DNA of 64,000 nt, taken from contig PWKY01000066.1 in assembly GCA_003560595.1 (NCBI GenBank), positions 226 through 64,225 on the forward strand. Reading direction: 5' to 3'. Of this stretch, positions 960 through 44,868 are shown piece by piece. Source of the stretch: Thermoplasmata archaeon. GTDB lineage: Archaea; Thermoplasmatota; Thermoplasmata; Halarchaeoplasmatales; Halarchaeoplasmataceae. The notes beneath the pieces are model-generated. The model was not told the origin of the DNA. It made no database searches and worked only from the letters and a program-made list of their open reading frames with translations. Every line of letters begins with the position of its first letter. The first letter of the stretch is position 1. Position numbers and translations under genes: made by a program.

Positions 960-980
960 CGAATATGTGGAAGAGTATAC

Positions 981-2297
981 ATGAAATATTCAAAAAAGGA
1001 TATAGTACCCGACGATAGATTATATGTTTATAAGTCCGAGGATGAAGAATTCAAAAAAATACATTTATTAACCGCCTTAAAGCAAATAGACCAGGGGTTA
1101 AAATTAAAATATTTCAGGGTTGAAAATAGAGAGCTATTGCCGGTTGCAGCGATCCATCCCCATACTAGGGTTACTAAAACAGGTAAAACCCAGAAAGTAA
1201 GGGGTCACTGGAGAAGAATTCCAGAAAAAATTGAAGAATTACCCGAGGACATTGATTTGGAAGAAGAAGATGATAAAATGGACGAAATAGAAAATTACAC
1301 AGATATAATTGAAGAATTCAGAAAAAAATACGAAAAAAACATATCAAAAGAAAAAGCGGATCCCCCTGAAAGAGGTGAATACGAATATGAGGATGAACTA
1401 GATGAAGAGGAGATTAAAGAAGAAATCGATGAATATGAATACGAGTCTAGAGAAGAGTCTGAGGAGATAATAGAAAAACCACCGGAGCCTCCAGAGGATT
1501 TTAGATGTACTGCATGGTATGTTGGATTCCATTATAATGATGAATGGGGGATATGGGCACGCCTAGAAGCCATTAAAGATCTGGCGAAAAATGCTCTATC
1601 TTACATCTATAATGATCACGACTTCGAAGGGGCTGAAAATTCTTTTACATCGAAAAAAGCTTTCCGTAAAGTTCTCGGTAAAATGGTTTTCAATGAAATG
1701 ATGGGCAGCATCATCAGACACGAGATGTTCCATCACATGGTAGAGGTAACAGCAACCAACTACGAAATCATATCCGGAAAGAAAGTTTATTTACCTTATA
1801 AACATAGAGTTTACGAACCGACATTCAATACAGAAAATAATGTGGAAGAAGCTATGGCTAGTGCAAATAGTGTCCTTCCTTTCACTTCTAGAGAATTCAT
1901 AATCAATTATTCAAACAATGATAAACACCTTCCAGAACAGTATCGGAGAATACTAACGGTCAAGTTTGTTGAGGATGTTGACAGATATATCAGAAAGAAT
2001 TGGTTAGATAATGCACCCTATTCTTACCGAAAATATGTTAAGTATTACAAAACTTGGAAGGACTTTATGAAAGGGATAAAGGAGCTAAATTCTCAAATAT
2101 TGACTGCAGACGTTAACACTAAAGAAAAAGACTCGATTGAAATGACCTCTGGTCAACTGTTCGGGTCTCCAGAAATAGTATTTGTTCGGGGTGGAATATT
2201 TTCGGATGTAATGTATAGACACATCGACTTTTTCTCTTTGGTGAGGGATCAAAAAAACCTAAAAGACAAATTTCCTATACCTCTACATTTTGTTTAA
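981..2297 (+). CDS. Uncharacterized acidic protein with a central Glu/Asp-rich low-complexity tract and an HExxH motif (IIRHEMFHHMVE), possible SprT/zincin-like metallopeptidase domain
   Basis: 438-aa ORF 22 bp downstream of the herA-like gene. The HEMFH motif resembles the SprT-family HEMIH signature. No other recognisable domain. Confidence 0.45.
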   Translation: MKYSKKDIVPDDRLYVYKSEDEEFKKIHLLTALKQIDQGLKLKYFRVENRELLPVAAIHPHTRVTKTGKTQKVRGHWRRIPEKIEELPEDIDLEEEDDKMDEIENYTDIIEEFRKKYEKNISKEKADPPERGEYEYEDELDEEEIKEEIDEYEYESREESEEIIEKPPEPPEDFRCTAWYVGFHYNDEWGIWARLEAIKDLAKNALSYIYNDHDFEGAENSFTSKKAFRKVLGKMVFNEMMGSIIRHEMFHHMVEVTATNYEIISGKKVYLPYKHRVYEPTFNTENNVEEAMASANSVLPFTSREFIINYSNNDKHLPEQYRRILTVKFVEDVDRYIRKNWLDNAPYSYRKYVKYYKTWKDFMKGIKELNSQILTADVNTKEKDSIEMTSGQLFGSPEIVFVRGGIFSDVMYRHIDFFSLVRDQKNLKDKFPIPLHFV

Positions 2298-2431
2298 GTA
2301 GCTTTTTTACAGTATAGCCTTCGCCTTTCTTTCTTCGTTTTTATTTGACATTTCTGCCTATATATTAAAAAATCATTTTAAAAAAGATTGTCAGATTCCA
2401 ATAAGTTTTTTACATAGTAACAATTAAACCA

Positions 2432-3010
2432 TTGAAAAGGCGTTGTAAAATTAACGAAAAGGTGCTGAAAATATACTATATAGCGAGATATCCATTACCA
2501 AGTGCGCTCTTGATAATTGCTAGTTTCTTCTCCTTCCTTTGGGCTATCACTAGAAGTGATGAGAATAAGAAGGGGGAAAAGGTAATTGAAACGATATTCC
2601 AATTTATCGGTTTTTCCTGGGGGGTGACAACTCTTGTCTGGGGTGTATATACATTGGGTTCGGAATCGCATCCTGGCTGGGTAGCTTGGATATTGATAGT
2701 TGTAGGTCTATCCCTTTTCTTAAAACCGATAAAAAACATACCATGGGCATCTTTGGTTAGCTTATTAGCAGCTAGCTCGTTAACAGCTCTGCTAGCTTAT
2801 AATATGAGCCCAATACCGTTTTTTGGTTTTGATCTGAGATGGCTACTTGCGATAGTCTTCTTTAGTTTACTCTTCACACTTTATATCATACTGAAATTTC
2901 TAGAAGACTTGTTTAAAGTCGTGGGAATCGTACTCAGCTCAGATCCGATATCGTTAATTATCGGATTTGCAGGTATGGCCCTAGGAATCGTTAGCTTGTT
3001 CGTAGTTTAG
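2432..3010 (+). CDS. Hypothetical integral membrane protein (about 5 predicted TM helices)
   Basis: Hydrophobic segments throughout the 192-aa ORF; AT-rich promoter-like region upstream. Confidence 0.45.
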   Translation: MKRRCKINEKVLKIYYIARYPLPSALLIIASFFSFLWAITRSDENKKGEKVIETIFQFIGFSWGVTTLVWGVYTLGSESHPGWVAWILIVVGLSLFLKPIKNIPWASLVSLLAASSLTALLAYNMSPIPFFGFDLRWLLAIVFFSLLFTLYIILKFLEDLFKVVGIVLSSDPISLIIGFAGMALGIVSLFVV

Positions 3011-3043
3011 ATATATACATCACATTGAACGTACCACTGGTAC

Positions 3044-3448
3044 ATGGTATTAATGTTCATATCGCACTCTCAGTTAACACAACAAAAACGCATAAATATC
3101 GCTCCAAGTATGTTTATCTGCATGATATATCGATTAGTCTTCACCGAAAAACCTGATTATAATCAATGGTTGTTCGGTTTGCAACGCGGTGGAGGTAGTA
3201 GAGTCACAGCAGTATTTTATGCTGAAGAAATGGATAAATTAGGTCTGAAAGCACCTAAACATGTGAACCCAAGGGCGAGATTTTACTTCACAGAGAGGGG
3301 TTGGGAAGAGATAGGCAAAAAGCTCGTGGAGAAGGCAAATAAAGAGGGGTTCAAGGTAAAGGTGATCAAGAAAAAGAACCCCAAGAGGAGCGATGTGGCA
3401 TATAGCGATCCGTATCAGGTGGCGTTACTGCCTAAGAGTAAACGTTGA
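3044..3448 (+). CDS. Hypothetical protein with a basic C-terminus
   Basis: ORF only; the true start may be an internal Met (MIYRLVF or MDKLGL). Confidence 0.3.
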   Translation: MVLMFISHSQLTQQKRINIAPSMFICMIYRLVFTEKPDYNQWLFGLQRGGGSRVTAVFYAEEMDKLGLKAPKHVNPRARFYFTERGWEEIGKKLVEKANKEGFKVKVIKKKNPKRSDVAYSDPYQVALLPKSKR

Positions 3449-3525
3449 ATTGCACACATTTATCTCAAAGATTCATCATAACTAACTTGTTCCATGTTTG
3501 AAAAGCTCGATGAAAGCACTATTTC

Positions 3526-4191
3526 CTATTCAAACATATCCATCCAATCACGTCTTTCCCCATCTAATTCTTCAAAAAACAACAGATCCTCATGCTTCTT
3601 TATTCGAAAGATAGAAACCGCGTAATCGTATAATGTGATCTCCATACTGACTTTTCCTATATTTAGGTCATAATCACTCTTTAAATGCATAATTTCTTTT
3701 GCTTCATCTAAAGTTAAACCATAACTCTGCCACTTCATCATTTCCTTCTTTAACTCGATATCAGAATACAACTTATCTTCGATCTCTTCCGGGCTCATTT
3801 GTTCTAGGTCTTTTGAACTAATGATAGAGAGATGATGATCTAAAAGATCCAATTCCGGGTTTATACCCGTTTTTTTACCTAGATAATCAACTCTAGTCCT
3901 CAGCTCTAGCAGATAATCATATCTTGTTCTTAATTCGTATATCTTGTTATTCATCTCGTTGATAAAATCCTCGGAAAGAAAATCCTGGGCTTTTTCATTC
4001 ATTTCGAAAATCTCTTCGTCTTTACAGCCCCCATCGATCATCTCATTAATCTTGTCGCATATCTCAATTAGTCCCTCTTCTTTTTTTCCTAATACCTCGT
4101 TAACTCTCTCAAAGTCTTCAACAAACTTCTCGTGCAATTCTAATGCGTGATATAATGCTTTGATGTATTCCTCATGGTCGATATTCATCAA
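3526..4191 (-). CDS. Hypothetical acidic protein
   Basis: 221-aa ORF with consistent codon usage; no recognised motif. Confidence 0.4.
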   Translation of the reverse strand: MMNIDHEEYIKALYHALELHEKFVEDFERVNEVLGKKEEGLIEICDKINEMIDGGCKDEEIFEMNEKAQDFLSEDFINEMNNKIYELRTRYDYLLELRTRVDYLGKKTGINPELDLLDHHLSIISSKDLEQMSPEEIEDKLYSDIELKKEMMKWQSYGLTLDEAKEIMHLKSDYDLNIGKVSMEITLYDYAVSIFRIKKHEDLLFFEELDGERRDWMDMFE

Positions 4192-4351
4192 TTATACAAG
4201 AACTCGTACCTTGATATAATTTTCGTAACTGTTAATTCTAGTTTGTTTTTCTCCACAAAGATGTTAATACGGTGACCGTCAGAATTAAGAAATCTATAAA
4301 CATGAAAGAAAAGCTTATTTTTCTCATGAAAACTTACACCATCGTGATTTC

Positions 4352-4810
4352 ATGGTCAGTTTATACGGAGGAAAGATATATAGATACCATAATCGGCTCT
4401 ACCATATAGTGGACCGGAAAGAAGAGGAAGGTACGGTGAAGATATCTAAGATAACTAATCCCAAAACTAGTTTCTGGGTAGAAGAGTCGGAAGTGGAGTT
4501 CGTAAGCGATATGTTCGATGTACAGGGTGACAGTGAATTAGAAACGTGTTACGTTGCACTGGGGGTATACGGAAGATATACTCAGGAACTCGATTTCATA
4601 AGAACTTGTGGAAGATTACTGGAAGATTACGCAAATATGAAGAGGTTCGACGTAGGTGATTCTCGTAAAGAATTTATCGAACACCTGGCGGAAATGGACA
4701 TACTGATAGAACAGATGAAGATACTCTTTTCCTATGAAGAAGAGTGGGAACATATACGATCTCATAAATTATCTAACATTCGTTTTAATATCGAGGATAT
4801 GTTGAGATGA
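4352..4810 (+). CDS. Hypothetical protein
   Basis: 152-aa ORF; no recognised motif. Confidence 0.4.
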   Translation: MVSLYGGKIYRYHNRLYHIVDRKEEEGTVKISKITNPKTSFWVEESEVEFVSDMFDVQGDSELETCYVALGVYGRYTQELDFIRTCGRLLEDYANMKRFDVGDSRKEFIEHLAEMDILIEQMKILFSYEEEWEHIRSHKLSNIRFNIEDMLR

Positions 4811-5079: not shown

Positions 5080-5736
5080 TCATCCTAATGTACTCAAAAC
5101 TTCTTTGCAATCTTCGTCAGAGGTGATAGGGTCTATCACAGCTTTGATAAAACGCACGATCAGATCATCTAAAGTGCCGAATGCATCGACCATATCTAGC
5201 TCTGGATAGGTTTCCAGCAATCTATCGTTCTTTATGCTGACGACGGTATCTGCTATATCTTCCAGTTCGTTCAAAGCTTTCTCGGCTCTTTTTCCCGATT
5301 TTGCCCCTTCCACCTTGAACGGTAGAACACATATAGCGAAGATAAGAGCACAGTGTTCCCTAGCGATCTCTGCAACCATAGGGGCGGTAGCGGTACCGGT
5401 TGACCCGCCTAATCCGCTTACAAGGAACGTTATATCCGTTTTCTCCATGATCTCATCTATGGTATCCCTCTCTTCTTTATCTGCTCCCACTGATGAAAAG
5501 ATGAAACCACCAGTTGGATCTTTACATATCAAATATTTGTTCTCGATGGGAACAGTTTCTAAATGTGTAGAATCAACATCTATCGCGACCAATCCTACCC
5601 CGTGCATATCTACCTCGGTAGCCTTCCGGACTATGTTGCAACCAGTACCGCCAACACCGATGATATTCTTTCTCAGTTTCAAAGTGTTCAAAACCTCTTG
5701 CAACTCTGTTTCATCTTCCTTTGTTTCCATTCTCAT
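5080..5736 (-). CDS. FtsZ/tubulin-superfamily GTPase-domain-only protein (truncated FtsZ paralog lacking the C-terminal T7-loop domain)
   Basis: GVGGTGCN (glycine-rich T1 loop) and GLGGSTGTATAPMVAEIA (tubulin signature GGGTGSG variant) align with the FtsZ N-terminal domain. The protein ends at about 218 aa, before the NxDxxD T7 region. Confidence 0.65.
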   Translation of the reverse strand: MRMETKEDETELQEVLNTLKLRKNIIGVGGTGCNIVRKATEVDMHGVGLVAIDVDSTHLETVPIENKYLICKDPTGGFIFSSVGADKEERDTIDEIMEKTDITFLVSGLGGSTGTATAPMVAEIAREHCALIFAICVLPFKVEGAKSGKRAEKALNELEDIADTVVSIKNDRLLETYPELDMVDAFGTLDDLIVRFIKAVIDPITSDEDCKEVLSTLG

Positions 5737-5886: not shown

Positions 5887-6567
5887 TCACTTAAAACACA
5901 CCTCTATTGCTTTTGTTTCCATCATTTCAATTACCTCCCTTAGATCTCCTTCAGAGTATCCCTCCAACCCCTCGGTATCGGGATCGATGTGGGGCGGCCG
6001 GCTTTCATAGTCCTGTAACACATACCTTTTAAACGGAGATATGGACCTCACCAACTCCAGTACATCCTCCGGGAATACCACGCCAGGTACCAGTGTGGTC
6101 CTGAACTCGTATTCGATACCGGACGATCTGATCAGCTCCATGGACTCCCGTATATCATCAGGATCCACATCCCCCATGAGGTGATACCTGTGGAAAGAGG
6201 TCTTCACGTCCATGGCCAGGTAGTCCACCGATCCACGTTCTATGATCTCCCTTAAAACATCGGGCCGGGTCCCGTTGGTGTCCAACTTGACTAGATATCC
6301 CATCTCCCTGATATCCCCGAGAAACTTCAGCAGATCTGGCTGTAGGGTCGGCTCACCACCGGTTACACACACCGCCTCTAGTCTGTCCTTACGTTCTTCA
6401 AGAAATCCCATTACGTGCTCTTCCGATATCAAAGGTACATCACCTCTCACAAGCCTCACGTTATAGCAGTAAGGGCAGCGGAGATTGCATCCCACGGTCC
6501 AGATTACGGCACAGAGGTGATCAGGATAATCAAGCAGCGACAGTTTCTGCAGCCCGCCTATCTTCAT
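5887..6567 (-). CDS. nrdG: Anaerobic ribonucleoside-triphosphate reductase activating protein (radical SAM)
   Basis: CNLRCPYCYN radical-SAM motif; start overlaps the nrdD stop (ATGA coupling); gene order nrdD-nrdG. Confidence 0.85.
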   Translation of the reverse strand: MKIGGLQKLSLLDYPDHLCAVIWTVGCNLRCPYCYNVRLVRGDVPLISEEHVMGFLEERKDRLEAVCVTGGEPTLQPDLLKFLGDIREMGYLVKLDTNGTRPDVLREIIERGSVDYLAMDVKTSFHRYHLMGDVDPDDIRESMELIRSSGIEYEFRTTLVPGVVFPEDVLELVRSISPFKRYVLQDYESRPPHIDPDTEGLEGYSEGDLREVIEMMETKAIEVCFK

Positions 6568-8678
6568 GCTTCCGCACTCACAGAACTTCTAAAGGTCTTG
6601 CGGTGCACGAACTCCTGACCCTTGCCTTCGTTCCACTGGTCCACAGGCCTGAGGTATCCCACCACCCGTGAGTAAACCTCGCACCGTACCTTCTGTCCAT
6701 ACTCCGCACAGCGTGGACAATGTCGATGTTCGCCTGAAATATACCCATGGTTGGTGCATATGCTGAAGGTGGGTGTTAGGGTAAAATACGGTATTGTATA
6801 ATTCTCGGCGATGGTGCGAACGAGCTTTTTGGTTGACTCTACAGACGGAAGCCTCTCGCCCAGGAACGCGTGGAACACCGTTCCACCCGTGTATTTCGAC
6901 TGTAAGGGTTCCTGCATATCTAGGGCTTCGAATAGATCGTCCGTGAACCCCACCGGGAGTTGAGTCGAGTTGGTGTAGTACGGTATGGATCCCTCGCCTG
7001 TGCTGAACCGTATTCCGGGATATCTTTTTACATCCGCCCTTGCCAATCGGTAGCTCGTGCTCTCGGCCGGCGTCGCCTCCAGGTTGTGCAGGTTCCCGGT
7101 TTCCTCCTGGAATTCCAACAGTCGTTCGTTCATGTGGTCCAGCACCCTCTCGGCAAAGGACACACCTTCATCCGTACATATATCAGTACCGAGAAGATTT
7201 AACATCGCCTCGTTCATACCGACTATACCGATAGTACAAAAATGATTTTTCCAGTATTCTCCGAACCTCTCACGAACATCGGAGAGATAGAATCGTGAGT
7301 ACGGATGCAGGTTACTGTGGGTCAGCTCTTCGATGACCTCTCTCTTTATGCTCAAACAGTCCCTGGCCTTCTCCATCAACTCGTCCAGCCGCTCAAAAAA
7401 CTCATCTTCACTTTTGGATAGGTGACCGATCCTGGGTAGATTCAGCGTTACCACACCGACTGAACCGGTCTTCGGGTTCGCACCGAAGAGTCCGCCGCCC
7501 CTTTTTCGCAGTTCCCGACTGTCCAGCCTCAGCCGGCAGCACATGCTACGTGCATCTTCAGGCTTCATATCGCTGTTCACGAAATTTGAAAAATACGGTA
7601 CCCCGTACTTCGCCGTCATCTCCCAGATCGGATCCAACTCGCCATTATCCCAGTCAAAATCTCCCGTTATGTTGTACGTGGGTATGGGGAACGTGAAGGG
7701 TCTATCCGCAGCATCTCCCTCCAGCATCACTTCGGAAAAGGCTCTGTTGATGGTGACCATCTCCTCCGCATGATCACCGTACGTGTCTTCTTTCATCTCC
7801 CCGCCTATCACCACACCCTGATCACTCATGTAATTCGGTGGCTCCAAATCCATGGTTATGTTGGTAAAAGGTGTCTGGAAACCCACTCTGGTTGGCACGT
7901 TCATGTTGAACAGGAACATCTGTATCTCCTGCTTTACCTGCTGGTAGTTCAAGTCGTCCGCCCTAACGAAGGGTGCCAGTAAGGTATCGAAATTGGATAC
8001 CGCCTGGGCACCGGCGGCTTCCCCCTGAAGAGTGTACAGGAAATTAACCACCTGCATCAAAGCAACACTGAAGTGCTTCGCAGGGCCGCTCTCTATCTTT
8101 CCCCTAGCACCCCGGAACCCTTTCACCAATATCTCCTCTAGATCCCACCCTACACAGTAGGGTCCCAGTGTTCCCAGATCGTGTATGTGGATGTCGCCTT
8201 CCATGTGCAGTTTACTTATCTCCGAGGGGTAGAGCTTGTTCAACCAGTAATTAGAAACCACCGTTTCGGTGGTATAAACGTTGAGCCCCTGTAGCGAGTA
8301 GCTCATGTTGCTGTTCTCCTTCACCTTCCAATCCATCATGTCTAGATAGTTATCCACCACCTCGATCTCCTTGAGCAGTCCGCCGACCTCACGTATGTCC
8401 TGGTGCTGTTTTCGGTACAGTATGTAGGCCTTGGCGGTCCTGTACTCTCCGGCCTCCATGAGTACTTTCTCTACAAGGTCCTGCACGCTCTCCACATCGG
8501 GTATCTCGCCCATCGGCGTGTTCGACTTGAGTATCTCCACCACCTTGTCGGTCAGTTCCACAGCCGTATTGAGGTCTTTGTCACCCACAGCCAAGGATGC
8601 TTTCCATATTGCATTCGTTATCCTTACCGGGTTGAAATCCACAACTTTCCCATCCCTTTTTCTTATCTTTCTTATCAT
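6564..8678 (-). CDS. nrdD: Anaerobic ribonucleoside-triphosphate reductase, class III
   Basis: 704-aa ORF. C-terminal zinc site CPRCAEYGQKVRCEVYSRVVGYLRPV with a glycyl-radical-type region; conserved RNR class III blocks. Confidence 0.85.
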   Translation of the reverse strand: MIRKIRKRDGKVVDFNPVRITNAIWKASLAVGDKDLNTAVELTDKVVEILKSNTPMGEIPDVESVQDLVEKVLMEAGEYRTAKAYILYRKQHQDIREVGGLLKEIEVVDNYLDMMDWKVKENSNMSYSLQGLNVYTTETVVSNYWLNKLYPSEISKLHMEGDIHIHDLGTLGPYCVGWDLEEILVKGFRGARGKIESGPAKHFSVALMQVVNFLYTLQGEAAGAQAVSNFDTLLAPFVRADDLNYQQVKQEIQMFLFNMNVPTRVGFQTPFTNITMDLEPPNYMSDQGVVIGGEMKEDTYGDHAEEMVTINRAFSEVMLEGDAADRPFTFPIPTYNITGDFDWDNGELDPIWEMTAKYGVPYFSNFVNSDMKPEDARSMCCRLRLDSRELRKRGGGLFGANPKTGSVGVVTLNLPRIGHLSKSEDEFFERLDELMEKARDCLSIKREVIEELTHSNLHPYSRFYLSDVRERFGEYWKNHFCTIGIVGMNEAMLNLLGTDICTDEGVSFAERVLDHMNERLLEFQEETGNLHNLEATPAESTSYRLARADVKRYPGIRFSTGEGSIPYYTNSTQLPVGFTDDLFEALDMQEPLQSKYTGGTVFHAFLGERLPSVESTKKLVRTIAENYTIPYFTLTPTFSICTNHGYISGEHRHCPRCAEYGQKVRCEVYSRVVGYLRPVDQWNEGKGQEFVHRKTFRSSVSAEA

Positions 8679-9133
8679 TTATTCTTCTCCTTCAATAGTT
8701 TCTCGAGTTCTTTTTCAAAACACGTTATGTCCGCAAAGCTCCTATACACAGAGGCGAAACGTATGTAAGCGACCTGATCCAGTTCCTTCAGACCTTCCAT
8801 GATCTTTTCTCCTATCTCCTCGGCCTCCACTTCTCTGCACCCACTTTTCCTTATATCCGTCTCTATACGATTGACCATCTCTTCTATCTTGTCCACAGAG
8901 ACCGGTCTTTTCTCACAGGCCTTCTCTATCCCCTTACGGACCTTTTTTCGGTCGTATAGCTCCCGGTGACCGTCCTTCTTGACCACGTATAGCTCCACGG
9001 GCTCGATATACTCGTATGTTGTGAACCGTTCGCCGCAGTTCAAGCACTCTCTCCTACGGCGAATGGTATCACGGGACGAATCACGGGAGTCGGTCACCTT
9101 CGTACCTTCGTTGTCACAGTATGGGCATCTCAT
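8675..9133 (-). CDS. nrdR: Transcriptional repressor NrdR (zinc ribbon + ATP-cone)
   Basis: MRCPYCDNEGTKVTDSRDSSRDTIRRRRECLNCGERFTTYE and AYIRFASVYRSF are near-identical to bacterial NrdR blocks. Start taken at MRCPYC (the ORF track begins 4 codons earlier). Confidence 0.85.
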   Translation of the reverse strand: MRCPYCDNEGTKVTDSRDSSRDTIRRRRECLNCGERFTTYEYIEPVELYVVKKDGHRELYDRKKVRKGIEKACEKRPVSVDKIEEMVNRIETDIRKSGCREVEAEEIGEKIMEGLKELDQVAYIRFASVYRSFADITCFEKELEKLLKEKNK

Positions 9134-9604
9134 CCAAACCACCATATATAGTATATTTAATTCTTATAACTACAATATGGTGTATTTATTTAACCTTTTC
9201 GCAGAATCTAACGATATTATCAGAAGGTTTAACATACATGTTACCTATCATCAATGCATGGACCCTGATATGAGACTTGTAAAATACATAGACAAGGCGA
9301 TCAACAGTGGTGGAAAAAAGATACCCGTACCTGCACGTCTACTCAAGGCAGCTAGTCCTGATGGTAGAGATGCAGCTTCAAAACTGTGTAAATTGAACAA
9401 AGTGGAGATGGTGGTCGTATCTGGATGATATAGAGCTATCTTATTTTCAGAAGATATATTTTATTTCTTAACTCACCAGACTTTATACCTAGCTTTTCGT
9501 TAGGATACACCCTTATCTCTATTCAATAACCCTTCATGATTTGAGATCACCGAATTTGAAGTGCGTTATGCTTAAATACTGTTCCGAACTAGAAACCGTG
9601 TATA

Positions 9605-10876
9605 ATGATAAGCAAATACTTAAAAGAAGAAGTGAAACCCGCTACCGGATGCACCGAGCCCGCCGCGGTTGCCCTGGCTGTAGCCAAAGCGGCAAAGGAA
9701 TTGGTTGGAAATGTATATTCTATAAACGTGGAAGTCAGTAAAAGCATCTATAAAAATGGTCTTTTTGTTCTTATACCTGGGACCGAGGGGTTAAAGGGAA
9801 ATAAGATCGCAGCGGCACTAGGGGCTTTAGTCAAGGCAGAAGAACTGGATATCAACCTGTTACATCATACGAAGTCGGAAGATAAAAAAAAGGCTGTTGA
9901 ATTGATAGAAGAGAACAGGGTAAAAGTAACTTGTAATGATAAGATAGGAGTTTATGTGCACGCTTCGGTTCAAGACGATCTAAACAATGTATCTGAGTGT
10001 TATATCATCAACTCACATACAAATGTACAAAAGATCAAGTTGAATTCTAAAATTTTGTTTGGATCTGATGAGGATTTTCAAGAAAATAAAACCTTTTTTG
10101 AAAGGAATGGAATACAAGATATGTCTTTGGAAGATATCATAAAGATATCCACGGATATCAACGAAGAGGATGTAGATTTTATCTTTCACGGCGTTGATCT
10201 GAATATGGATGCCGCTTATTATTGTTTGAAACAAAAGGATGAATTTGTAAAAACTCCTGGGATCATTCTAAATGACGTTTTCGATGAGGATAACATCGCA
10301 GAAAAGATAAGAAAATATTCATCAGCAGCTTCTTTCACCCGGATGTTGGGATCAAACGTTACAGTCATGTCTTCCGGTGGTTCCGGTAATCAAGGTATAG
10401 TAGCGACCATACCTGTTTATCTATACGGTCTTTACAACGGTAACACAAAAGAGGAGATAGCACAGGCCCTGGCACTTAGTCATCTTCTATCGGGGTACGT
10501 TAAACACCTAGTCGGCAAGTTAGCTCCTATCTGCGGTGTTTTTTACTCTGCAGGCTCAGGTGCTGCAGCTGCTATCAGTTATTTGATGAATAAAGATCGG
10601 GATAAGATGTTAGATACCATCGATACCATGATATCCAATACCACTGGAATTATCTGCGACGGGGCGAAGGAAAGCTGTGCCTTCCGTATAGGTTTATCCG
10701 CCCATGAAACTTACATATCTGCCTTGATGGCCGATAGAGGTTTGTATGTAGAGATGGACCAAGGATTCATAGGTCAAAGCTGTAATGAAAGCATCAGAAA
10801 CATACAAAGATTAAATCTAGACGGTATGAAAGATCTGGATAACTTGATACTTTCGATCCTCGAAGGTCGAGGATGA
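9605..10876 (+). CDS. UPF0597/YhaM-family protein (L-cysteine desulfidase CdsB-like, Fe-S)
   Basis: The N-terminal KPATGCTEPAAVALAVA motif is typical of the YhaM/CdsB family. Confidence 0.65.
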   Translation: MISKYLKEEVKPATGCTEPAAVALAVAKAAKELVGNVYSINVEVSKSIYKNGLFVLIPGTEGLKGNKIAAALGALVKAEELDINLLHHTKSEDKKKAVELIEENRVKVTCNDKIGVYVHASVQDDLNNVSECYIINSHTNVQKIKLNSKILFGSDEDFQENKTFFERNGIQDMSLEDIIKISTDINEEDVDFIFHGVDLNMDAAYYCLKQKDEFVKTPGIILNDVFDEDNIAEKIRKYSSAASFTRMLGSNVTVMSSGGSGNQGIVATIPVYLYGLYNGNTKEEIAQALALSHLLSGYVKHLVGKLAPICGVFYSAGSGAAAAISYLMNKDRDKMLDTIDTMISNTTGIICDGAKESCAFRIGLSAHETYISALMADRGLYVEMDQGFIGQSCNESIRNIQRLNLDGMKDLDNLILSILEGRG

Positions 10877-10880
10877 GATC

Positions 10881-13484
10881 CTATTTCATTTTTGATTCTA
10901 TATGATCGATGACCTGGTGTATCTCACACGGTTGCACAACGATCAGATCTCCTTCTTTTGCCATCTCAAATCCGGCTTCTATGGCTTCTATCTCATCGAT
11001 TATCACCGTTACGCGATCTTCCGATAAACCAGCTTCTAAAACACCTTGTTTTACCAACTCCGCAGTTTCTCCGATGTTACGATACCTGGGGTCTGCATCG
11101 TTTATGATCACACGGTCGTATATCTTCCCGATACCCCTTCCAAAGTCGATGATATCTTCCGTCGGGCGGTTCCCAGTTCCCGAACATATAGTTATCTTTT
11201 CATTATCTGTTAGCTCATCCAATATCTTTGATATAGCTTCGACAGCGGGTCTGTTGTGTCCGTAGTCTATCATGACTTTGATCTTACCAACATCCATTAT
11301 GTTCATCCTTCCAGGATTTTGGTTGGTAGATGACTGGAAGGTCAAAAGCCCGCTTTTGATAGATTCGATGTCTATATCAAGGGCAAAGCATGAGGCAACT
11401 GCGGCTAATGAGTTCTGCAAGTTGAAGGCAGCTTTACCCTTAAATGCTATGGGTATATTAGCCACCTCGACCACCTTCCAAACGCTCTCACCTTTCTTTA
11501 TAACTATCCTATCGTCATCGACGGTTACAACTATACCGCCTTCGGAAAGATGTTCTTTTACTTCATTCATATCTGGGTCTAGTGAAAATAGTATGGTGTC
11601 CGCGTGAACGATATCTTTGTATCTGAACACATTGGGGTCCTCAGCATTGAGCACGGCTTTACCTGAAGCTTTAACGGTTTCCACCACGATACCCTTGAGG
11701 CGAGCCATGTCCCTTATGGTATTGATGCGCCCCTCACCCATGTGGTCCTTTGTGACGTTCAGGAACACGCCCACATCGCTCTCGTAATATCCTAACCCCC
11801 TTCTTAATATACCTCCTCGTGCCACCTCTAACACCGCATGATCAACGGTCTTTTCTTTTAGAACAAATTTTGCCCCCTGTGGTCCGCTAAAATCCCCCTC
11901 TTTCAATAGATGATCGCCTCTAAACAAACCGTCAGTACATGCGACGCCTACGTTTTTACCACTCAACATCAAGATATGGGCTATCAATCTGACTGTGGTG
12001 GTTTTTCCGTTGGTCCCTGTCACTGCCACTATCGGCACTCTACTCTTTGCTCCTGGTGGAAAGAGCATATCTAACACATACTTGGCAACGTTCCTCCGCT
12101 TCCCCTCATATGGATCCAAATGCATCCGAAATCCAGGTGCTGCGTTCACCTCTATTACCCCTCCATCACCATGCTTTATCGGTTGTTTCATGTCCTGAAC
12201 GATCAGATCGATACCCATAACATCCAAACCGATTATATCGGCGATCCTTTCAGCTAACACCTTATTATTTGGATGTAACGAATCGGTCACATCGGTAGCG
12301 GTCCCCCCCGAGCTTAGATTTGCGGTTGATTTCAGTAACAACTCTTCTCCTTCGGGAAGAACTGTGTCTAAAGTATGGTTATTCTGTTTGAGGATCCTTT
12401 TTGTCATGTAATCTATTTCGATCTTAGTAAGTGTTTTCTCGTGACCTACCCCTCTTCTTGGGTCGCTGTTCAATACCTCTATCAGTTCTTTTATAGATGA
12501 TCTACCATCACCCCTTATGAATGGAGGATCTCTTCTAGCTGCAGCAACAAGCTCTCCATCTATCACCAGCATCCTGTGATCGGCTCCTTTCAAATATTCT
12601 TCGATGACTACATTGGGATCGATCTTTTTAGCTATCTTAAAAGCGAGTTTTAATTCCTCACTATCCTCCACCCTTGAGGAGATCCCTCGTCCATGGTTAC
12701 CTATATTCGGTTTTACAGCTACTGGATAACCTGATCTCTTTGCCATGCTTAAAGCCTCCTCTATAGTTTTGACCGTCCCCCCTCGGGGAACGGGTATGCC
12801 CGCTTCTTCAAGGATATCTTTCGTATTTTTCTTATCATCGGCGATCTCAACGGCGATGGCGGAAGTGTTCTCGGTCATACTGGCTTGCACCCTCTTTTGA
12901 TAAGAACCATGGCCCAGCTGGACGTAGCTGTGCTGGTTCAGCCTTATATAAGGTATACCCCTGCGGTATGCTTCACTTACTATGGATTTTGTAGTAGGCC
13001 CAAGCATATTCTGGTCCCGAAGGTACTTCAATTTTTTTAATACCTCTTCGATATCCGGTTCCTCCCCCTTCGTCAAGGCTTTAACTACTCTTACTGCTTC
13101 TTTACCTGCTTCGATGCCGGCGTCTTCATCTCTGTACCTGAAAGCTATTTCGTATATCCCATGTTGGTCAGTAGACATAGTTTTTCCGAAACCTACATCC
13201 ATGTTGGCTAGGCACTGCAGTTCTATGGCCACATGTTCAACTATATGTCCTAACCATGTACCCAATTCCACTCGTTCCAAGAAACCTCCTTCGTATCCCC
13301 GGCTACAGCGATGGGCTTTCAATGAGGGTAAGAGTGATTTCAAGCGTTCTACGAAGCCTGGTATCTCATCAGATGGTCTATCTTCGAATTCTTCGATATC
13401 TAAAAGCATGTATACCACCTGATATCGACTAAAGTAATTTGGCCCTCTGAGGGCTCTGATCTCTTGGATCTCTATGATTATCAC
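10881..13484 (-). CDS. cphA: Cyanophycin synthetase (ATP-grasp + Mur-ligase domains)
   Basis: 867 aa. N-terminal IQEIRALRGPNYFS and FLERVELGTWLGHIVEHVAIELQ, an ATP-grasp core, then the Mur-ligase P-loop AVTGTNGKTTTVRLIAHIL. Collinear with bacterial CphA. Confidence 0.85.
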   Translation of the reverse strand: MIIIEIQEIRALRGPNYFSRYQVVYMLLDIEEFEDRPSDEIPGFVERLKSLLPSLKAHRCSRGYEGGFLERVELGTWLGHIVEHVAIELQCLANMDVGFGKTMSTDQHGIYEIAFRYRDEDAGIEAGKEAVRVVKALTKGEEPDIEEVLKKLKYLRDQNMLGPTTKSIVSEAYRRGIPYIRLNQHSYVQLGHGSYQKRVQASMTENTSAIAVEIADDKKNTKDILEEAGIPVPRGGTVKTIEEALSMAKRSGYPVAVKPNIGNHGRGISSRVEDSEELKLAFKIAKKIDPNVVIEEYLKGADHRMLVIDGELVAAARRDPPFIRGDGRSSIKELIEVLNSDPRRGVGHEKTLTKIEIDYMTKRILKQNNHTLDTVLPEGEELLLKSTANLSSGGTATDVTDSLHPNNKVLAERIADIIGLDVMGIDLIVQDMKQPIKHGDGGVIEVNAAPGFRMHLDPYEGKRRNVAKYVLDMLFPPGAKSRVPIVAVTGTNGKTTTVRLIAHILMLSGKNVGVACTDGLFRGDHLLKEGDFSGPQGAKFVLKEKTVDHAVLEVARGGILRRGLGYYESDVGVFLNVTKDHMGEGRINTIRDMARLKGIVVETVKASGKAVLNAEDPNVFRYKDIVHADTILFSLDPDMNEVKEHLSEGGIVVTVDDDRIVIKKGESVWKVVEVANIPIAFKGKAAFNLQNSLAAVASCFALDIDIESIKSGLLTFQSSTNQNPGRMNIMDVGKIKVMIDYGHNRPAVEAISKILDELTDNEKITICSGTGNRPTEDIIDFGRGIGKIYDRVIINDADPRYRNIGETAELVKQGVLEAGLSEDRVTVIIDEIEAIEAGFEMAKEGDLIVVQPCEIHQVIDHIESKMK

Positions 13485-13612
13485 CTCTAGCGTTTAGATA
13501 AAAGGTTTTTACTCTATTTATAACATATATGCATATAGTAGGTATTAAACATTACCGTTATCGTTGTTCATATCCTGAGTTAGGTCAGATCAACAAAAGC
13601 ATCATCCCTGGA

Positions 13613-14482
13613 TCAAAATTGACCTTTCATAAATACCTCGGCCTTTTTCATGACGGACCATGCGAAGAGAAAATAGCCGAAAGATAACACCATCTCCGCA
13701 GCTTCTTGTCCGGCTTTGTTGTCTGTCAATGGGATCTTGTAACTGTGTACTTGAAACATCAATGGGATCAGTATCAGGATCACCAAAACTAGATATCTCC
13801 CCCATCTCGGCGGTAGCTTTTTTACGTAATCCTTTGCGATCGGTAGTTGAAAAAGCACGAAAAGTGCTATAGTAAGTATTACAAAAGCGATCAGTTTTGG
13901 GATCACCCATCTATGGCCCACATAATACGTCAACGGAAGCAGAAAAAAGAAGTGAAGATCCGGAGACATCACCGGAAACTCAAATCTATCTATTAGACGA
14001 TGTATGGGCTCGACAGTTTCGTGCATGAGTGGAAGCACCACACCTAAAAGAAGGCTTCCCCCCCAAAGCAGAACGTGAAAAAGATCGGTATTCAAATTGT
14101 GTATGTTTATTTCGTCCTGTTCATTGATCTCGCCGATAGCTTCAGGGGTCTCTATCCCAAATATACGCTGGCCCCAGCTGATCTCCTCCATAGCAACGAA
14201 GAAAAATAGTATGGCGAAGGCTATCACAAATAATTTGTACCTTTTGCTGAGTGGTACCTTAAAAAACGTCCATAACAACATGACTCCTGCACCTATATAA
14301 AATATAGCTGTTAGATACTCGTAGGTCCAATCCTCAGAAAAGAACAACCTTCTTAACCATGGATATTCCTTGATCCCCCAGCCCACCAGTATGATCTGTA
14401 TTACGGTGAGGGCTGCTACGAATAAAAGACACCTTTTATAAAGATAAGTCCCTTTATAGACACCGAAGGATCGATAACCCAT
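13613..14482 (-). CDS. Hypothetical integral membrane protein
   Basis: 289-aa ORF with multiple hydrophobic helices. Confidence 0.4.
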   Translation of the reverse strand: MGYRSFGVYKGTYLYKRCLLFVAALTVIQIILVGWGIKEYPWLRRLFFSEDWTYEYLTAIFYIGAGVMLLWTFFKVPLSKRYKLFVIAFAILFFFVAMEEISWGQRIFGIETPEAIGEINEQDEINIHNLNTDLFHVLLWGGSLLLGVVLPLMHETVEPIHRLIDRFEFPVMSPDLHFFFLLPLTYYVGHRWVIPKLIAFVILTIALFVLFQLPIAKDYVKKLPPRWGRYLVLVILILIPLMFQVHSYKIPLTDNKAGQEAAEMVLSFGYFLFAWSVMKKAEVFMKGQF

Positions 14483-14553: not shown

Positions 14554-15792
14554 TCAAGCGAACATAACCTGTTTCTTTATCTTTCGCTCAGGTGAATCGG
14601 TGAGTACTTTATCTATCGCCTTTAAGAAATCTTCTTGGGTTATGACGTCATTTCCCTCTCTTAGCGTGAGCATCCCCGCCTCGGTACATATGGCTTTGAT
14701 ATCTGCTCCAGATGCCCCTTCAGTTTTCTTTGCAATGGTGTTCAGATCAACATCGTCATGTATGGGCATCATCAATGTATGGATACCAAAGATCTTCTTT
14801 CTGGCTTCCTTGTCGGGCAGTGGTACGGATATGATCCTATCAAAACGTCCTGGACGGAGTAGAGCTTTATCCAACAGTTCGGGCCTATTTGTAGCACCCA
14901 TGACTTTTACCTCACCTACAGGCTCAAAGCCGTCAAGTTCAGCCAGAAGCTGCATCATGGTCCTTTGGACTTCCCTATCACCTGATGTGGCCTGTTCCAT
15001 CCTTCTGGTAGCCACGGAGTCGAGTTCGTCTATGAATATTATAGAGGGTGATTTTTCTTTCGCCATCTGGAATAGCTCCCTGACCATCCGTGCCCCTTCT
15101 CCGATATATTTCTGTACCAACTCAGAACCTACCAGCTTGATAAAGGTAGCGTGAGTTCTGTTAGCAGCGGCCTTGGCGATCATGGTTTTACCTGTTCCGG
15201 GAGGTCCTACGAGCAGCACTCCTTTTGGTGGTTCGATACCCATGTGTTGATATCTTTTGGGGTTAAGTAAAGGCTCTTCAACGGTTTCTTTTACCTCTCT
15301 GATCTGATCTTCAAGTCCACCGATATCATCGTAGGTTATTTCCGGTTTTTCCAGTATCTCTGCACCCATAATATTTGGGTCAACAGATGGTGGAAGTACT
15401 TTTACTATGGAAAGAGTTTGTTTATTCAACGCAACTCTGGTTCCTGGACAGATATCTTTGGCTGAAAGATAATCTGCCACCGTAACGATAAAATCTGGGC
15501 CGGTAGAACTCTCTATTATAGCTTCACCGTGGGGTAAAGTTTCCTTTATATTCCCTACTATAAGAGGTGGCTTTTTCAATCTCGCCAATTCCTTCTTGAT
15601 CTCTCGGGTTTCCCTCTTTATCCTGTTCAGTTCCTCTACTATGTAATCCCTTTCCCCACCGTACTGGGTTTCTGCAAGGAGTTCATCGTGTTTACGTTGT
15701 AACTCCTCTATCCGCCGTGTGAGTCCTCTTGAAGAACCCTTCAAATCGTCGTCATCCAAACGATTCACCATATGTGTATTGTTTAAATTCAT
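14554..15792 (-). CDS. pan: Proteasome-activating nucleotidase (AAA+ ATPase)
   Basis: N-terminal coiled coil, Walker A GPPGTGKTM, Walker B IIFIDELD and the AAA second region of homology. Confidence 0.9.
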   Translation of the reverse strand: MNLNNTHMVNRLDDDDLKGSSRGLTRRIEELQRKHDELLAETQYGGERDYIVEELNRIKRETREIKKELARLKKPPLIVGNIKETLPHGEAIIESSTGPDFIVTVADYLSAKDICPGTRVALNKQTLSIVKVLPPSVDPNIMGAEILEKPEITYDDIGGLEDQIREVKETVEEPLLNPKRYQHMGIEPPKGVLLVGPPGTGKTMIAKAAANRTHATFIKLVGSELVQKYIGEGARMVRELFQMAKEKSPSIIFIDELDSVATRRMEQATSGDREVQRTMMQLLAELDGFEPVGEVKVMGATNRPELLDKALLRPGRFDRIISVPLPDKEARKKIFGIHTLMMPIHDDVDLNTIAKKTEGASGADIKAICTEAGMLTLREGNDVITQEDFLKAIDKVLTDSPERKIKKQVMFA

Positions 15793-19986: not shown

Positions 19987-20766
19987 ATGAAATCTATGTT
20001 TGGAGAATCGAGTGAAAGTGACGTTACAAGAGCTATAGTGCGAGAATTCGGGAAGGTATTGGACGAGTATTCCGAATCCGATGTGATAATAGTGGGTGCG
20101 GGGCCGAGCGGACTGATGGCCGCCCGGGATCTGGCTTCCAAAGGTCATAAAACACTGGTGGTCGAGAGGAACAATTATCTGGGTGGTGGCTTCTGGTTGG
20201 GAGGTTATCTTATGAACACGGTTACAGTGCGCCCCCCTGCTCATAAGATCCTCGACGAGCTCGGTATACCGTACAAGAAGAGTGGCAATCTATACACTGC
20301 GTTGGGTCCTCACGCGTGCTCTAAGTTGATCGCTGCGGCCTGCGACGAGGGGATACAGATACTTAACATGACCGAGTTCGACGATGTGGTATTCAGAGGT
20401 AAGAAAAAGGTAGGCGGGGTGGTGATTAACTGGACACCCGTATCCGCATTACCACGGCAGATAACCTGTGTCGACCCTATATCGTTGGAGTCCAAGATGA
20501 TAATCGATTCCACCGGACACGATGCATGTGTGGTTAAGAAACTAGAGGAAAGGGGTCTGCTGGAAACTTCGGGTTTCGGTGGCATGTGGGTACAAGAGTC
20601 CGAAGATCTTGTGGTGGAGCACACCGGTAAGGTCATGGACGGTCTAGTGGTTACCGGGATGGCGGTTTCCACGACCTATGGTTTACCCCGTATGGGACCC
20701 ACCTTCGGTTCGATGCTCGTGTCCGGGAGGAAAGCCGCCGAGGTGGTAGATGAGCTTCTCAGTTGA
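19987..20766 (+). CDS. thi4: Thiamine thiazole synthase Thi4 (archaeal type)
   Basis: FAD-binding [11 protein letters not shown] motif and the [11 protein letters not shown] block; collinear with Thi4/THI1. Confidence 0.85.
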
Positions 20767-21511
20767 ATTACCATTTGATAGAACGATATTGTACCTCCCA
20801 GCTGATCTTGAACATCTAGACGGCGACGAGATGCTGGAATTCACCGAAGAGTACACCGGTTTACCGGTAGAATTACGGGATGATTTCTTCCATGAATATT
20901 ACCGTGAGGACCTACCTAGAAGATCGGCTCAGACCAGGGTCAGGGATCTTACCGAAAGGAGGTTCATCGAACCCCTTCCGGTGGAGGTCGATCTTGAAGA
21001 GAAGATAATACATGGAAGGAACGTCCGGGGTATTATCTACGACGGGCGGAGGTTAACAAAGATGATACGGGAGTATATAGCTCCGGCGAAGGGCCATCAT
21101 GTGGTCATCACCGATAGAGCGGTGGGTACTATGGAGGAGCACGATGCCCGCTATCATATTCGAACGCTTATCTGTTCGATCCCTTCTCTTATCTCCACTT
21201 CCGGTATCGTAGAAGGTCCGGCGAAACCGAGGGAGTATTACACCGGCTTGAAGTCGGATCTCGGATTCGAGCCCATGAAGTACGGAGACACTCGTATGAC
21301 GGATGCGGTGAAGTCATACATCCTTCAATCTCTCGCATGGAGGATCACCGGGGAGCCCTTTTGTGAGGATAAAGGGTGCCGTCTTTACAATTCTCACTGG
21401 CAGAAAGAAGTGGTCGAGTATCAGCTGAAAGGTGAGCTGTGTGACGAAGACATGAAATTATTTCGAGAGTTCCAAAATTTTATGTATTCAAAGGATGATG
21501 CGAGGATATGA
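20750..21511 (+). CDS. Conserved hypothetical protein between thi4 and the ThiF-like E1
   Basis: 253-aa ORF whose boundaries overlap thi4 and the downstream E1 gene (ATGA coupling); Cys-containing C-terminal region. Confidence 0.4.
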
Positions 21512-22497
21512 CAAGGTATTCTCGCCAAACCGTGCTGCCCGAGATCGGGGACGAAGGCCAGAAACGTTTGAGCGAGAGCCGGGTAGCTATAATAGGACTA
21601 GGCGGGCTGGGTTCGGTGATGGCGGAAGGGTTGGCGAGAGCCGGTGTGGGTTATCTTAGAGTGGTGGACAGGGATGTGCTGGAATTATCCAACCTTCAGC
21701 GCCAGGCACTTTATGGCGAAGGAGATATCGGGAAAGCCAAAGCCGAGTTGGTAAAAGAGAAGATAGGCCGGATCAACTCCGAGGTTAGTGTTGGATCTCA
21801 CGTGGTCGAGGTAGGTTCGAAAAATATTGAAAAACTCATAGATGGTGCAGATATAGTATTAGATGCCACGGACAACATGAAAACCCGTTTCATACTCAAC
21901 GATGCCTGTGTGAAACACGGGATACCTTGGATTTATACTTCTATCTTAGGCACCTACGGTATGACCATGGATGTTGTACCCGGAAAAGGCCCCTGCTTAC
22001 GCTGCTTGCTCGTGAAGATGCCGGAACCCGGGAGTATGGAGACCTGTGCCACCGCCGGTGTGCTTTTTTCTTTACCACGGATCATGGCGAACATAGCCGC
22101 CACCGAGGCAGTGAAATATTTAATCGGGGCGGATACGAGAAATACTTTACTGACGATAGATATTTGGAAGAACGATTACGAACAGATCCAAGTGACTCAA
22201 AGAGAAGACTGTGGATGCTGCGCTAAAAAGGATTTCGAATATCTGCAAAAAGAAGACGATCTCACCACTTCCATGTGCGGTAGAGAAGCGGTACAGGTGA
22301 CACCCGAGGAGAGAGTTGAGGTCGATCTAGACAAGTTCGTTAAAAAGTACGGCGGAAAGATGGTAGGGAGATCATTGGCAAAGTTTGAAATGGATGCTTA
22401 CACACTCACACTCTTCAAAGACGGAAGGCTTATCGTCGAGGGGACTGAAGATCCTAAAAAGGCGATAAGTATTTACTCGGAGTACATAGGTAGATGA
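21508..22497 (+). CDS. ThiF/MoeB/HesA-family E1-like adenylyltransferase with an additional C-terminal domain of about 80 aa
   Basis: YSRQ start, nucleotide-binding IIGLGGLGS motif and two CxxC pairs (CLRCLL, CGCCAKK). Confidence 0.8.
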   Translation: MTRYSRQTVLPEIGDEGQKRLSESRVAIIGLGGLGSVMAEGLARAGVGYLRVVDRDVLELSNLQRQALYGEGDIGKAKAELVKEKIGRINSEVSVGSHVVEVGSKNIEKLIDGADIVLDATDNMKTRFILNDACVKHGIPWIYTSILGTYGMTMDVVPGKGPCLRCLLVKMPEPGSMETCATAGVLFSLPRIMANIAATEAVKYLIGADTRNTLLTIDIWKNDYEQIQVTQREDCGCCAKKDFEYLQKEDDLTTSMCGREAVQVTPEERVEVDLDKFVKKYGGKMVGRSLAKFEMDAYTLTLFKDGRLIVEGTEDPKKAISIYSEYIGR

Positions 22498-44181: not shown

Positions 44182-44868
44182 TCAAATTTTTCCCTCTTTA
44201 ATCATCTTTATCCTTCGAGAAGCATCGATACATTCTCGATGATCAAGGGTGTTATCGAATTCTGGGTTTTCTAATAGATAAACTAATTCATTTATCAGTT
44301 TAGATATCCCATGAGAAAAACTCCAGCTAGACAGGTATTCACAATGTATATCTCCTCCACGCTCCGGCGGCGCGATGTTTGGATGGTATATCTGTGACTG
44401 CCATTTTACTCTGGGAGCCACATAAGGATAGGCCCTTGCTAATGACAAAGATAATTTATGTTTAAAGGAGTTGGCGATCATATCTCCGATCAAAACAGGA
44501 CCGGGTATGTTTTTTAATGTAACCTCTACATCGAATCTATTTTCGGAAGAGTCACAGGAAACGCTGTATCCATCGTTTTTTAAAGACTTGACCTCGTTTA
44601 AAATCCTCTGTTCCCAAATCTCTTCTGGAAGTCTGTTTGGATCGTCAGATGGTCTGAGTATCAGTACTTCTCCATGGTCAAAAGATACATTTGACCAGGT
44701 CATATGAGTCGAGATCATTTCACCATCAAGTTCAAATACGTGTGGTTCATGCAATTCCCAGTAAGAACTTACGTCTGAAAGTGTTTTAGAAACTTTATCT
44801 TGGGGCGAAACGGATACACTAACCCTGTCCCCTGTGCCCTCTTTTAAGATCGATAATACCTTACTCAT
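44182..44868 (-). CDS. Ubiquitin-conjugating enzyme E2-like protein (UBC fold with HPN motif and catalytic Cys) with an N-terminal extension of about 80 aa
   Basis: QIYHPNIAPPERGGDIHCEYLSSWSFSHGISKLINELVYLLENPEFDNTL aligns block by block with eukaryotic UBC (KIYHPNI..GSICLDIL..WSP..ISKVLLSI.SLL.DPNPDDPL). The upstream helix-1 and beta-meander regions are also collinear. Confidence 0.75.
   Translation of the reverse strand: MSKVLSILKEGTGDRVSVSVSPQDKVSKTLSDVSSYWELHEPHVFELDGEMISTHMTWSNVSFDHGEVLILRPSDDPNRLPEEIWEQRILNEVKSLKNDGYSVSCDSSENRFDVEVTLKNIPGPVLIGDMIANSFKHKLSLSLARAYPYVAPRVKWQSQIYHPNIAPPERGGDIHCEYLSSWSFSHGISKLINELVYLLENPEFDNTLDHRECIDASRRIKMIKEGKI

Follow-up and report, generated by a model that had tools for sequence, protein, structure and literature searches.

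Is a cyanophycin synthetase gene (cphA1) in an archaeal genome a recent loan from bacteria, or does it belong to a lineage long resident among archaea, and what would it do there? The question is raised by a stretch of 64,000 nucleotides (nt) from a Thermoplasmata archaeon (positions 226 to 64,225 of contig PWKY01000066.1, assembly GCA_003560595.1), here called the window, in which one open reading frame (ORF) encodes a full-length CphA1. Cyanophycin is described as a bacterial biopolymer in a survey of bacteria only (Sharon et al. 2023, PMC10206079), and the surveys of cyanophycin genes have been restricted to bacterial RefSeq genomes (PMC10206079, PMC9974463). A sequence-only reading of the window had likewise treated cyanophycin metabolism as essentially bacterial. 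This matches the literature, but the databases hold annotated archaeal CphA1 proteins and cyanophycinases. Full-text literature searches returned no paper on archaeal cyanophycin synthesis. In this work, we consider it highly probable that the gene encodes a canonical, active CphA1 serving an aspartate/arginine reserve, and that it belongs to an old archaeal branch within which it became stand-alone after the loss of an operon.

A Canonical Cyanophycin Synthetase

The predicted protein matches the NCBIfam models TIGR02068 (1144 bits, cut-off 850, model positions 1–860 of 862) and NF010623 (1103.5 bits, cut-off 877). Among solved structures, the best match was 7lg5, the CphA1 of Synechocystis UTEX2470 (SuCphA1; 793 bits, 44.6% identity), with an alignment collinear across query residues 8–863 (856 residues), followed by 7wac, the CphA1 of Trichodesmium erythraeum (TeCphA1; 770 bits), collinear over the same query residues. 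The earlier description of a full-length enzyme collinear with bacterial CphA in an archaeal genome was therefore accurate. Homologues open with MEIQEIR, and because the codon at this position is ATA in the window and the sole in-frame start nearby is a GTG three codons upstream, the GTG is a reasonable call. The Pfam domains follow the order required of a CphA1, that is, N (Cyanophycin_syn), G (ATP-grasp) and M (Mur_ligase_M and Mur_ligase_C), with domain boundaries carried over from TeCphA1 (PMC9427784) through the alignment to solved structures (Table 1).

Functional residues established by mutagenesis or structure (PMC9262961, PMC9427784) were mapped by HMMER alignment, and 25 of the 26 sites checked are identical between window CphA and SuCphA1/TeCphA1. 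The sole change is R100 to K, at a site where the mutation R100A was neutral in the work on SuCphA1/TeCphA1 (PMC9262961, PMC9427784). In the N domain, the identical sites are H57, C59, S60, F67, R70, H79, E82, H83 and E87 in Su/Te numbering; the window residues H58, C60, R71, H80, E83, H84 and E88 are the same residues in SuCphA1. All ten G-domain sites are identical, namely E213, K218, K258, H264, R304, R318, N389, S391, G451 and R453, whose counterparts in Su/TeCphA1 are E215, K220, K261, H267, R309, R323, N394, S396, G456 and R458 (roles in PMC9427784). The same is true of all six ATP/Mg and catalytic sites of the M domain, K494, T495, T517, E553, D580 and H581 (K499, T500, T522, E558, D585 and H586 in Su/TeCphA1). 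The polymer-contact residue E90 of cyanobacterial CphA1 is C in window CphA. Across the 19-member clade described below, the functional residues are kept except at three sites, each of them altered in one sequence only; the G-domain residues are present in 19 of 19 sequences save for E213Q in one, and the M-domain residues are invariant. The sequence-only reading had proposed that a non-functional or repurposed homologue would betray itself by substituted ATP-grasp and Mur-ligase catalytic residues, and at none of these did the window depart from the characterized enzymes.

We also considered whether the protein could be a CphA2, which is confined to cyanobacteria and is recognized by degeneracy of the M domain and by the lack of HxxEH in the N domain. 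This identity is ruled out by the intact P-loop and DH pair of the M domain and by the presence of the N-domain motif.

By homology with the solved enzymes, the ATP-grasp G domain would phosphorylate the C-terminal backbone carboxylate of the growing chain and add L-Asp, and the Mur-ligase-like M domain would use ATP to attach L-Arg to the Asp β-carboxylate (a predicted specificity). The N domain would hold the polymer, with its Cx19HxxEH zinc site cutting existing chains into primers, and the enzyme would presumably assemble as a tetramer. This motif and its role were defined in SuCphA1, in which it forms a slow zinc endo-cyanophycinase that makes primers (PMC9262961). Since the motif is complete in the window and H58, R71 and E88 are present, the window CphA1 is predicted to be primer-independent. 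Judged by its residues, the window gene is a canonical and apparently active cyanophycin synthetase, and the enzyme itself looks conventional.

Archaeal Host and Phylogenetic Position

The contig carries genes for PAN, S19e, L31e, L44e, eIF6, aIF2-alpha, deoxyhypusine synthase, Trm1, NFACT and Thi4 (Pfam), and because ribosomal and translation markers stand on the same contig as cphA, the host is archaeal. Within Thermoplasmata it stands close to Candidatus Halarchaeoplasmatales, and it is an anaerobe. The closest CphA homologues are labeled Ca. Saliniplasma, Ca. Natronoplasma or Thermoplasmata archaeon; Saliniplasma and Natronoplasma belong to Ca. Halarchaeoplasmatales, within Thermoplasmatota, and are known from metagenome-assembled genomes (MAGs) of soda-saline lake sediments. 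Most of these relatives are MAGs, and cphA lies at a synteny breakpoint (see below), as might be seen if a fragment of bacterial cphA had been joined to archaeal sequence during assembly or binning. Nevertheless, archaeal markers stand on both sides of the gene in a continuous 64-kb sequence with no step in composition at cphA, and the clade's cphA has unrelated genes as its neighbors in eight or more independent assemblies labeled Thermoplasmata or Halarchaeoplasmatales. We regard the probability of such an artifact as negligible.

A neighbor-joining tree was built from the window protein, the full-length sequences among its best 120 matches and SuCphA1 as the sole cyanobacterial outgroup. 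Window CphA falls within a 19-member clade with a bootstrap of 100/100, the other 18 members of which are 65.9–79.1% identical to it and, where they bear names, are all archaeal. The remaining matches among the best 120 are 53.6–57.8% identical to window CphA. The named bacterial sequences (Bacteroidales, Acidobacteriota and Aminicenantes) form one clade, also at 100/100, at 53.7–55.8% identity, and SuCphA1 is 44% identical in the tree set. The named archaeal homologues among the best 120 are MAG proteins of Thermoplasmatota, Thermoplasmata or Methanobacteriota already labeled as cyanophycin synthetase, and a profile search with archaeal-type CphB returned, among the best 120 of 8,000 matches, many proteins from the same phyla annotated as cyanophycinase. 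CphA1 is not rare in archaea, and this large branch of it is publicly annotated yet unstudied.

A recent acquisition from Bacteria, bringing a new storage capacity to the host, would suit the literature, which treats cyanophycin as bacterial (PMC10206079). It is disfavored, however, because the identity of bacterial relatives to window CphA does not exceed 55.8%, well below that of the members of its own clade, and because the composition of the gene (GC 0.450; GC at third codon positions, GC3, 0.455) is indistinguishable from the window means (0.435 ± 0.037 and 0.456 ± 0.064, respectively). An old transfer between Archaea and Bacteria is likely. The horizontal acquisition suggested by the sequence-only reading can be retained if the transfer was ancient or took place among archaea, but not as a recent import.

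Gene Context and a Proposed Loss of the Operon

Four more distant homologues (loci L008, L009, L010 and L011), 54–58% identical to window CphA, belong to the same CphA1 branch and carry the same motif set. In all four, a Peptidase_S51 gene ends within 10 nt upstream of cphA1, and in three of them (L009, L010 and L011) an M20 hydrolase gene lies directly downstream. At L010, the CphB protein scored 242.6 bits with TIGR02069 (against 126.6) and the M20 protein 489 bits with NF010589 (against 333). Locus L008 adjoins an archaeal S12-S7-aEF2-aEF1a-S10 cluster, and the neighbors of L010 include SRP54 and prefoldin. The ancestral state of the archaeal CphA1 branch may thus have been a cphB-cphA1(-M20 hydrolase) operon.

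The clade of the window presents a different picture. Contexts were compared in eight of its lineages (the window, L003, L002, L005, L007, L012, L014 and L015), with flanks of up to 10 kb; a scan of GTDB genomes with a single-protein query returned two loci. An S51 or M20 gene occurs in the flanks of none of the eight, neither the window nor the seven other lineages showed a cyanophycinase (Peptidase_S51, TIGR02069) at 5 kb or less from cphA1, and tblastn with archaeal-type CphB and M20 queries detected no remnant in the window or the other clade loci. The absence of cphB near cphA1 extends throughout the clade, and the window is no special case. Neighborhoods differ in all eight lineages and often include toxin-antitoxin, Abi, Mrr, PIN or restriction genes.

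Two further loci, L017 and L018, the contigs of the best PAN matches and thus the closest relatives, share with the window a block of five genes (69–91% amino acid identity) that breaks on both sides. The synteny stops precisely where PAN ends on its 3' side; both loci have a Gpr1/Fun34/YaaH gene there, and neither contig has a cphA. That cphA stands at the end of a syntenic region in which these two loci have a YaaH-family gene instead, and that in relatives it lies among toxin-antitoxin, restriction and Abi genes typical of variable regions, could again be taken in favor of a recent bacterial import. Yet a block that breaks on both sides points to rearrangement as general and not specific to cphA, and with the identity and composition data given above we regard a recent import as largely refuted and very improbable.

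In Ca. Saliniplasma halalkaliphilum (locus L002), a remnant of the 289-amino-acid (aa) membrane gene that precedes cphA in the window (residues 200–274, 67% identical) is found 2.3 kb upstream of cphA, hinting that the two genes were once linked; this remnant is a truncated ORF corresponding to the C-terminal third of the protein (Table 1). Taken together, these contexts indicate that a stand-alone cphA1 has been kept functional yet has been relocating between variable genome regions. In the sub-clade of the window, cphA1 would have turned stand-alone, and probably monocistronic, while moving among such regions.

Part of this movement may have taken place between organisms, with cphA1 exchanged between lineages within the order as an element of the flexible genome of halophilic Thermoplasmata. 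Such an explanation is compatible with the enzyme function favored here. It would account for the different neighborhood in each of the eight lineages, for the membrane gene remnant and for the fact that no cphA occupies the syntenic site in the nearest relatives by PAN (91% and 87% identical, both from Thermoplasmata MAGs) and that the protein collection contains no CphA above 79% identity to that of the window. Furthermore, the identity between window CphA and a Ca. Natronoplasma sequence reaches 78%, whereas for PAN, the best-conserved protein of the block, the identity to Natronoplasma sequences is no higher than 70%. This last comparison is suggestive only, since MAGs are incomplete, the Natronoplasma CphA and PAN may stem from different genomes, and evolutionary rates differ between proteins. 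In addition, rearrangement alone can scramble gene contexts, and no mobile-element genes lie directly beside cphA in the window. We therefore see lateral movement within the group as a possible, if somewhat less than even, prospect.

In two sub-lineages of the stand-alone clade, a conserved hydrophobic protein of 86–91 aa, ending in a poly-Arg/Lys tail and without Pfam match, is encoded 50–60 nt upstream of cphA1 (Table 1), with 65% identity between lineages. This membrane protein is absent from the window.

Mobilization of the Predicted Polymer

In the proposed scheme, the host would use the polymer as an Asp/Arg reserve of nitrogen, carbon and possibly energy. Peptidase_S51, IadA/IaaA-type, M14 CphZ-type and M20 proteins were all missing from the 64 kb (Pfam, 62 of the 63 candidate ORFs, that at 52973-53830 included), and archaeal CphB and M20 sequences used as tblastn queries found no match at E≤1, in agreement with the earlier remark that the window has no cphB. 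Likewise, the scanned ORFs showed no IadA-type amidohydrolase, Asparaginase_2 or M14 match that could supply a β-Asp-Arg dipeptidase. As cphB and M20 genes are not linked to cphA1, mobilization would require either an unrecognized enzyme or a cyanophycinase gene at another place in the genome. There is nothing unusual as such in a lone cphA1: only 658 of 1,614 cphA1-containing bacterial genomes have a recognizable cyanophycinase (PMC10206079).

The M18 aminopeptidase gene, which the earlier reading had named as the nearest peptidase, is real (Table 1). The M18 family acts on α-linked N-terminal Asp/Glu. We rejected it as a cyanophycin peptidase on account of its distance of 16 kb, its lack of linkage to cphA in relatives and the α-aminopeptidase chemistry of its family.

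The M20 genes that follow cphA1 at L009, L010 and L011 are of the PRK13983 type, with 52–59% identity between copies, and may encode a candidate for the missing β-Asp-Arg dipeptidase. Such an enzyme is still missing in some phyla (Sharon et al., PMC10206079). A literature search for cyanophycin and M20 showed no apparent link among the matches listed.

The unlinked cyanophycinase would also be accounted for if the window protein were a repurposed homologue that makes another polymer (containing Lys, ornithine or citrulline) or has a role other than storage, for example as the source of a charged polymer in a high-salt cell. Some CphA1 enzymes do incorporate other residues (PMC10206079), the relatives are predicted to be "salt-in" halophiles (PMC11332174), and the loss of linkage to cphB and M20 is clade-specific (linkage in none of the eight clade lineages vs. 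cphB linkage in four of the four distant loci). On the other hand, the Asp-binding, catalytic and primer-site residues are all conserved, the clade included, the score is well above the TIGR02068 equivalog cut-off, and lone cphA1 genes occur commonly among bacteria for which cyanophycin storage is known or assumed (PMC10206079). The window proteins are also only moderately acidic (median isoelectric point, pI, 5.4; CphA, pI 5.7). A repurposed enzyme appears to us quite unlikely. Somewhat less unlikely, though still doubtful, is that cphA1 of Halarchaeoplasmatales-like archaea was freed from the operon which the other homologues examined retain, yet stayed under strict purifying selection, with mobilization by an enzyme unrelated to S51 cyanophycinases or with a use other than reversible storage.

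Some points weigh against the favored interpretation of an active, once operon-borne CphA1 that makes a storage polymer. The function of archaeal CphA1 is a prediction from sequence. The direction of transfer and the "ancestral operon" are provisional, as the tree was made of closest matches with one outgroup and many unlabeled leaves, and archaeal origin is established by neighboring genes for two of the four operon loci, L008 and L010. The search for cphB covered 64 kb of the genome, and a distal cphB lies outside its reach. The names Saliniplasma and Natronoplasma are absent from the best 120 of 8,000 CphB matches, which is uninformative either way.

Local Organization and Other Features of the Window

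Downstream, cphA converges on a gene that lies 4 nt past the cphA stop codon. The sequence-only reading had called this neighbor YhaM-like; its SDH_alpha domain fits that description, but no NCBIfam model supplies the name. The AT-rich spacer upstream of cphA is 128 nt long and includes a TATA-box-like element, TTATAAATA, which may be the gene's own promoter. Because of this spacer with its putative promoter and of the convergent gene downstream, cphA is probably monocistronic. A scan for sigma-70 promoters and terminators, which has no meaning in archaeal DNA, gave fewer matches than in shuffled controls. Neither an Rfam nor a tRNA scan returned any match in the window.

Table 1. Coordinates of cphA1, its parts and other features (window positions unless a locus is named)
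Feature	Position	Strand	Description and basis
cphA1	10881..13484	minus	867 codons and TAG stop, GTG start; ORF listing
N domain, polymer-anchoring	13008..13484	minus	~aa 1-159; PF18921 Cyanophycin_syn aa 26-138, 151.5 bits
Cx19HxxEH motif CSRGYEGGFLERVELGTWLGHIVEH	13233..13307	minus	C60...H80-x-x-E83-H84; regular expression and translation
G domain, ATP-grasp	12039..13007	minus	~aa 160-482; ATP-grasp Pfam matches aa 215-319
M domain, Mur-ligase-like	10884..12038	minus	~aa 483-867; Mur_ligase_M (PF08245) aa 488-698, Mur_ligase_C (PF02875) aa 725-851
M-domain P-loop TGTNGKT	12000..12020	minus	Translation check; counterpart of TeCphA1 residues 495-501 (PMC9427784)
TATA-box-like element TTATAAATA	13515..13523	minus	~35 nt upstream of GTG; read off the sequence
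SDH_alpha gene, YhaM/UPF0597-type	9605-10876		SDH_alpha 152 bits; no NCBIfam model names the protein
289-aa membrane protein	13613-14482		Hydrophobic, multi-pass; upstream of cphA; no family match
PAN	14554-15792		One gene away from cphA; directly upstream of the neighboring membrane gene
Five-gene block shared with L017 and L018	14554-19887		553-aa hypothetical protein, 179-aa protein, HhH-GPD, DUF763, PAN
M18 aminopeptidase	29608-31050		PF02127 305.6 bits, NF002600 667 bits
Truncated 86-aa ORF	L002 1622-1891		C-terminal third of the 289-aa membrane protein; upstream of cphA
PRK13983-type M20 genes	L009 12638-13891; L010 12645-13895; L011 12633-13856
Poly-Arg/Lys-tailed protein	L012 5680-5955; L013 909-1184; L015 1907-2167; L016 1215-1475
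Low-GC region	1-4810		HerA-like ATPase fragment and five ORFs without Pfam match
Tubulin/FtsZ-family genes	5080-5736; 34678-35814
nrdG-nrdD-nrdR cluster	5887-9145		Radical-SAM activase, anaerobic ribonucleotide reductase, NrdR repressor
ThiF/E1-like gene beside DUF6775 gene	21508-22497 and 20750-21511		DUF6775: "probable metallopeptidase"
UQ_con protein	44182-44868		Ubiquitin E2-like domain
1454-aa acidic protein	45030-49394		No family match; adjoins the UQ_con gene
Acidic zinc-ribbon proteins	54131-56734; 52973-53830		pI 4.2-4.3, 27% Asp+Glu

Beyond the convergent neighbor of cphA lies the adjoining nrdG-nrdD-nrdR cluster, with a GC of 0.48–0.51 and a GC3 of 0.59–0.64, clearly above the window means. 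NrdR is mainly bacterial, and this block may have been laterally acquired. The first 4,810 nt of the window have a low GC (0.35–0.39) and look like a variable or defense-type island. The UQ_con and ThiF/E1-like genes may be parts of a ubiquitin-like modifier system. Of the two tubulin/FtsZ-family genes, one encodes a full FtsZ and the other a 218-aa protein with the GTPase domain only. The larger of the two very acidic zinc-ribbon proteins (54131-56734) coincides in length with CphA (867 aa) and has DUF835 as its last domain. It was tried as a CphA paralogue and rejected, BLASTP showing no similarity between the two. Another DUF835 protein is encoded near cphA at L012.

Comparison with Known Systems

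What is gained here concerns distribution and ecology and not mechanism. The additions are an unstudied archaeal CphA1 branch with operons and a clade-wide uncoupling of cphA1 from cphB and M20. Thermoplasmatota hold a deep CphA1 branch, catalytically intact as judged by its residues, with some members in cphB-cphA1-M20 operons and some alone, which would extend nitrogen and arginine storage to anaerobic archaea of saline lakes and could be a source of salt-adapted CphA1 variants for biopolymer production. It also sharpens a question of the field, that is, what degrades cyanophycin and its dipeptides in cphA1 organisms without a recognizable cyanophycinase.

The cyanobacterial enzymes SuCphA1 (PDB 7LG5/7LGJ/7TXU) and TeCphA1 (PDB 7WAC) share with the window protein the N-G-M architecture, the 25 residues and the Cx19HxxEH motif. 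Window CphA differs from them in its archaeal host, in the changes R100 to K and E90 to C, in the lack of an adjacent cphB, in an identity of ~45% and in an activity that is predicted from sequence. The operons at L008–L011, which come from other Thermoplasmatota-type MAGs, hold CphA1 proteins of the same branch with the same motif set; they have a TIGR02069 cyanophycinase, and three of the four also a PRK13983-type M20 hydrolase, whereas the clade of the window is without both.

Among bacteria, the nearest parallel is the lone cphA1 of, for example, β-Proteobacteria (PMC10206079), a state without recognizable cyanophycinase that is found in ~59% of complete cphA1 genomes. Unlike these, the lone gene of the window would be a derived state, reached in a lineage of archaea with relatives that retain the operon. 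Within archaea, a cyanophycinase has been predicted in Culexarchaeia, in a study that called the topic barely discussed and without experiments (PMC9723716). Both cases are genomic predictions of archaeal cyanophycin cycling, but that of Culexarchaeia concerns degradation (cphB) in TACK archaea, whereas that of the window concerns synthesis (cphA1) in Thermoplasmata.

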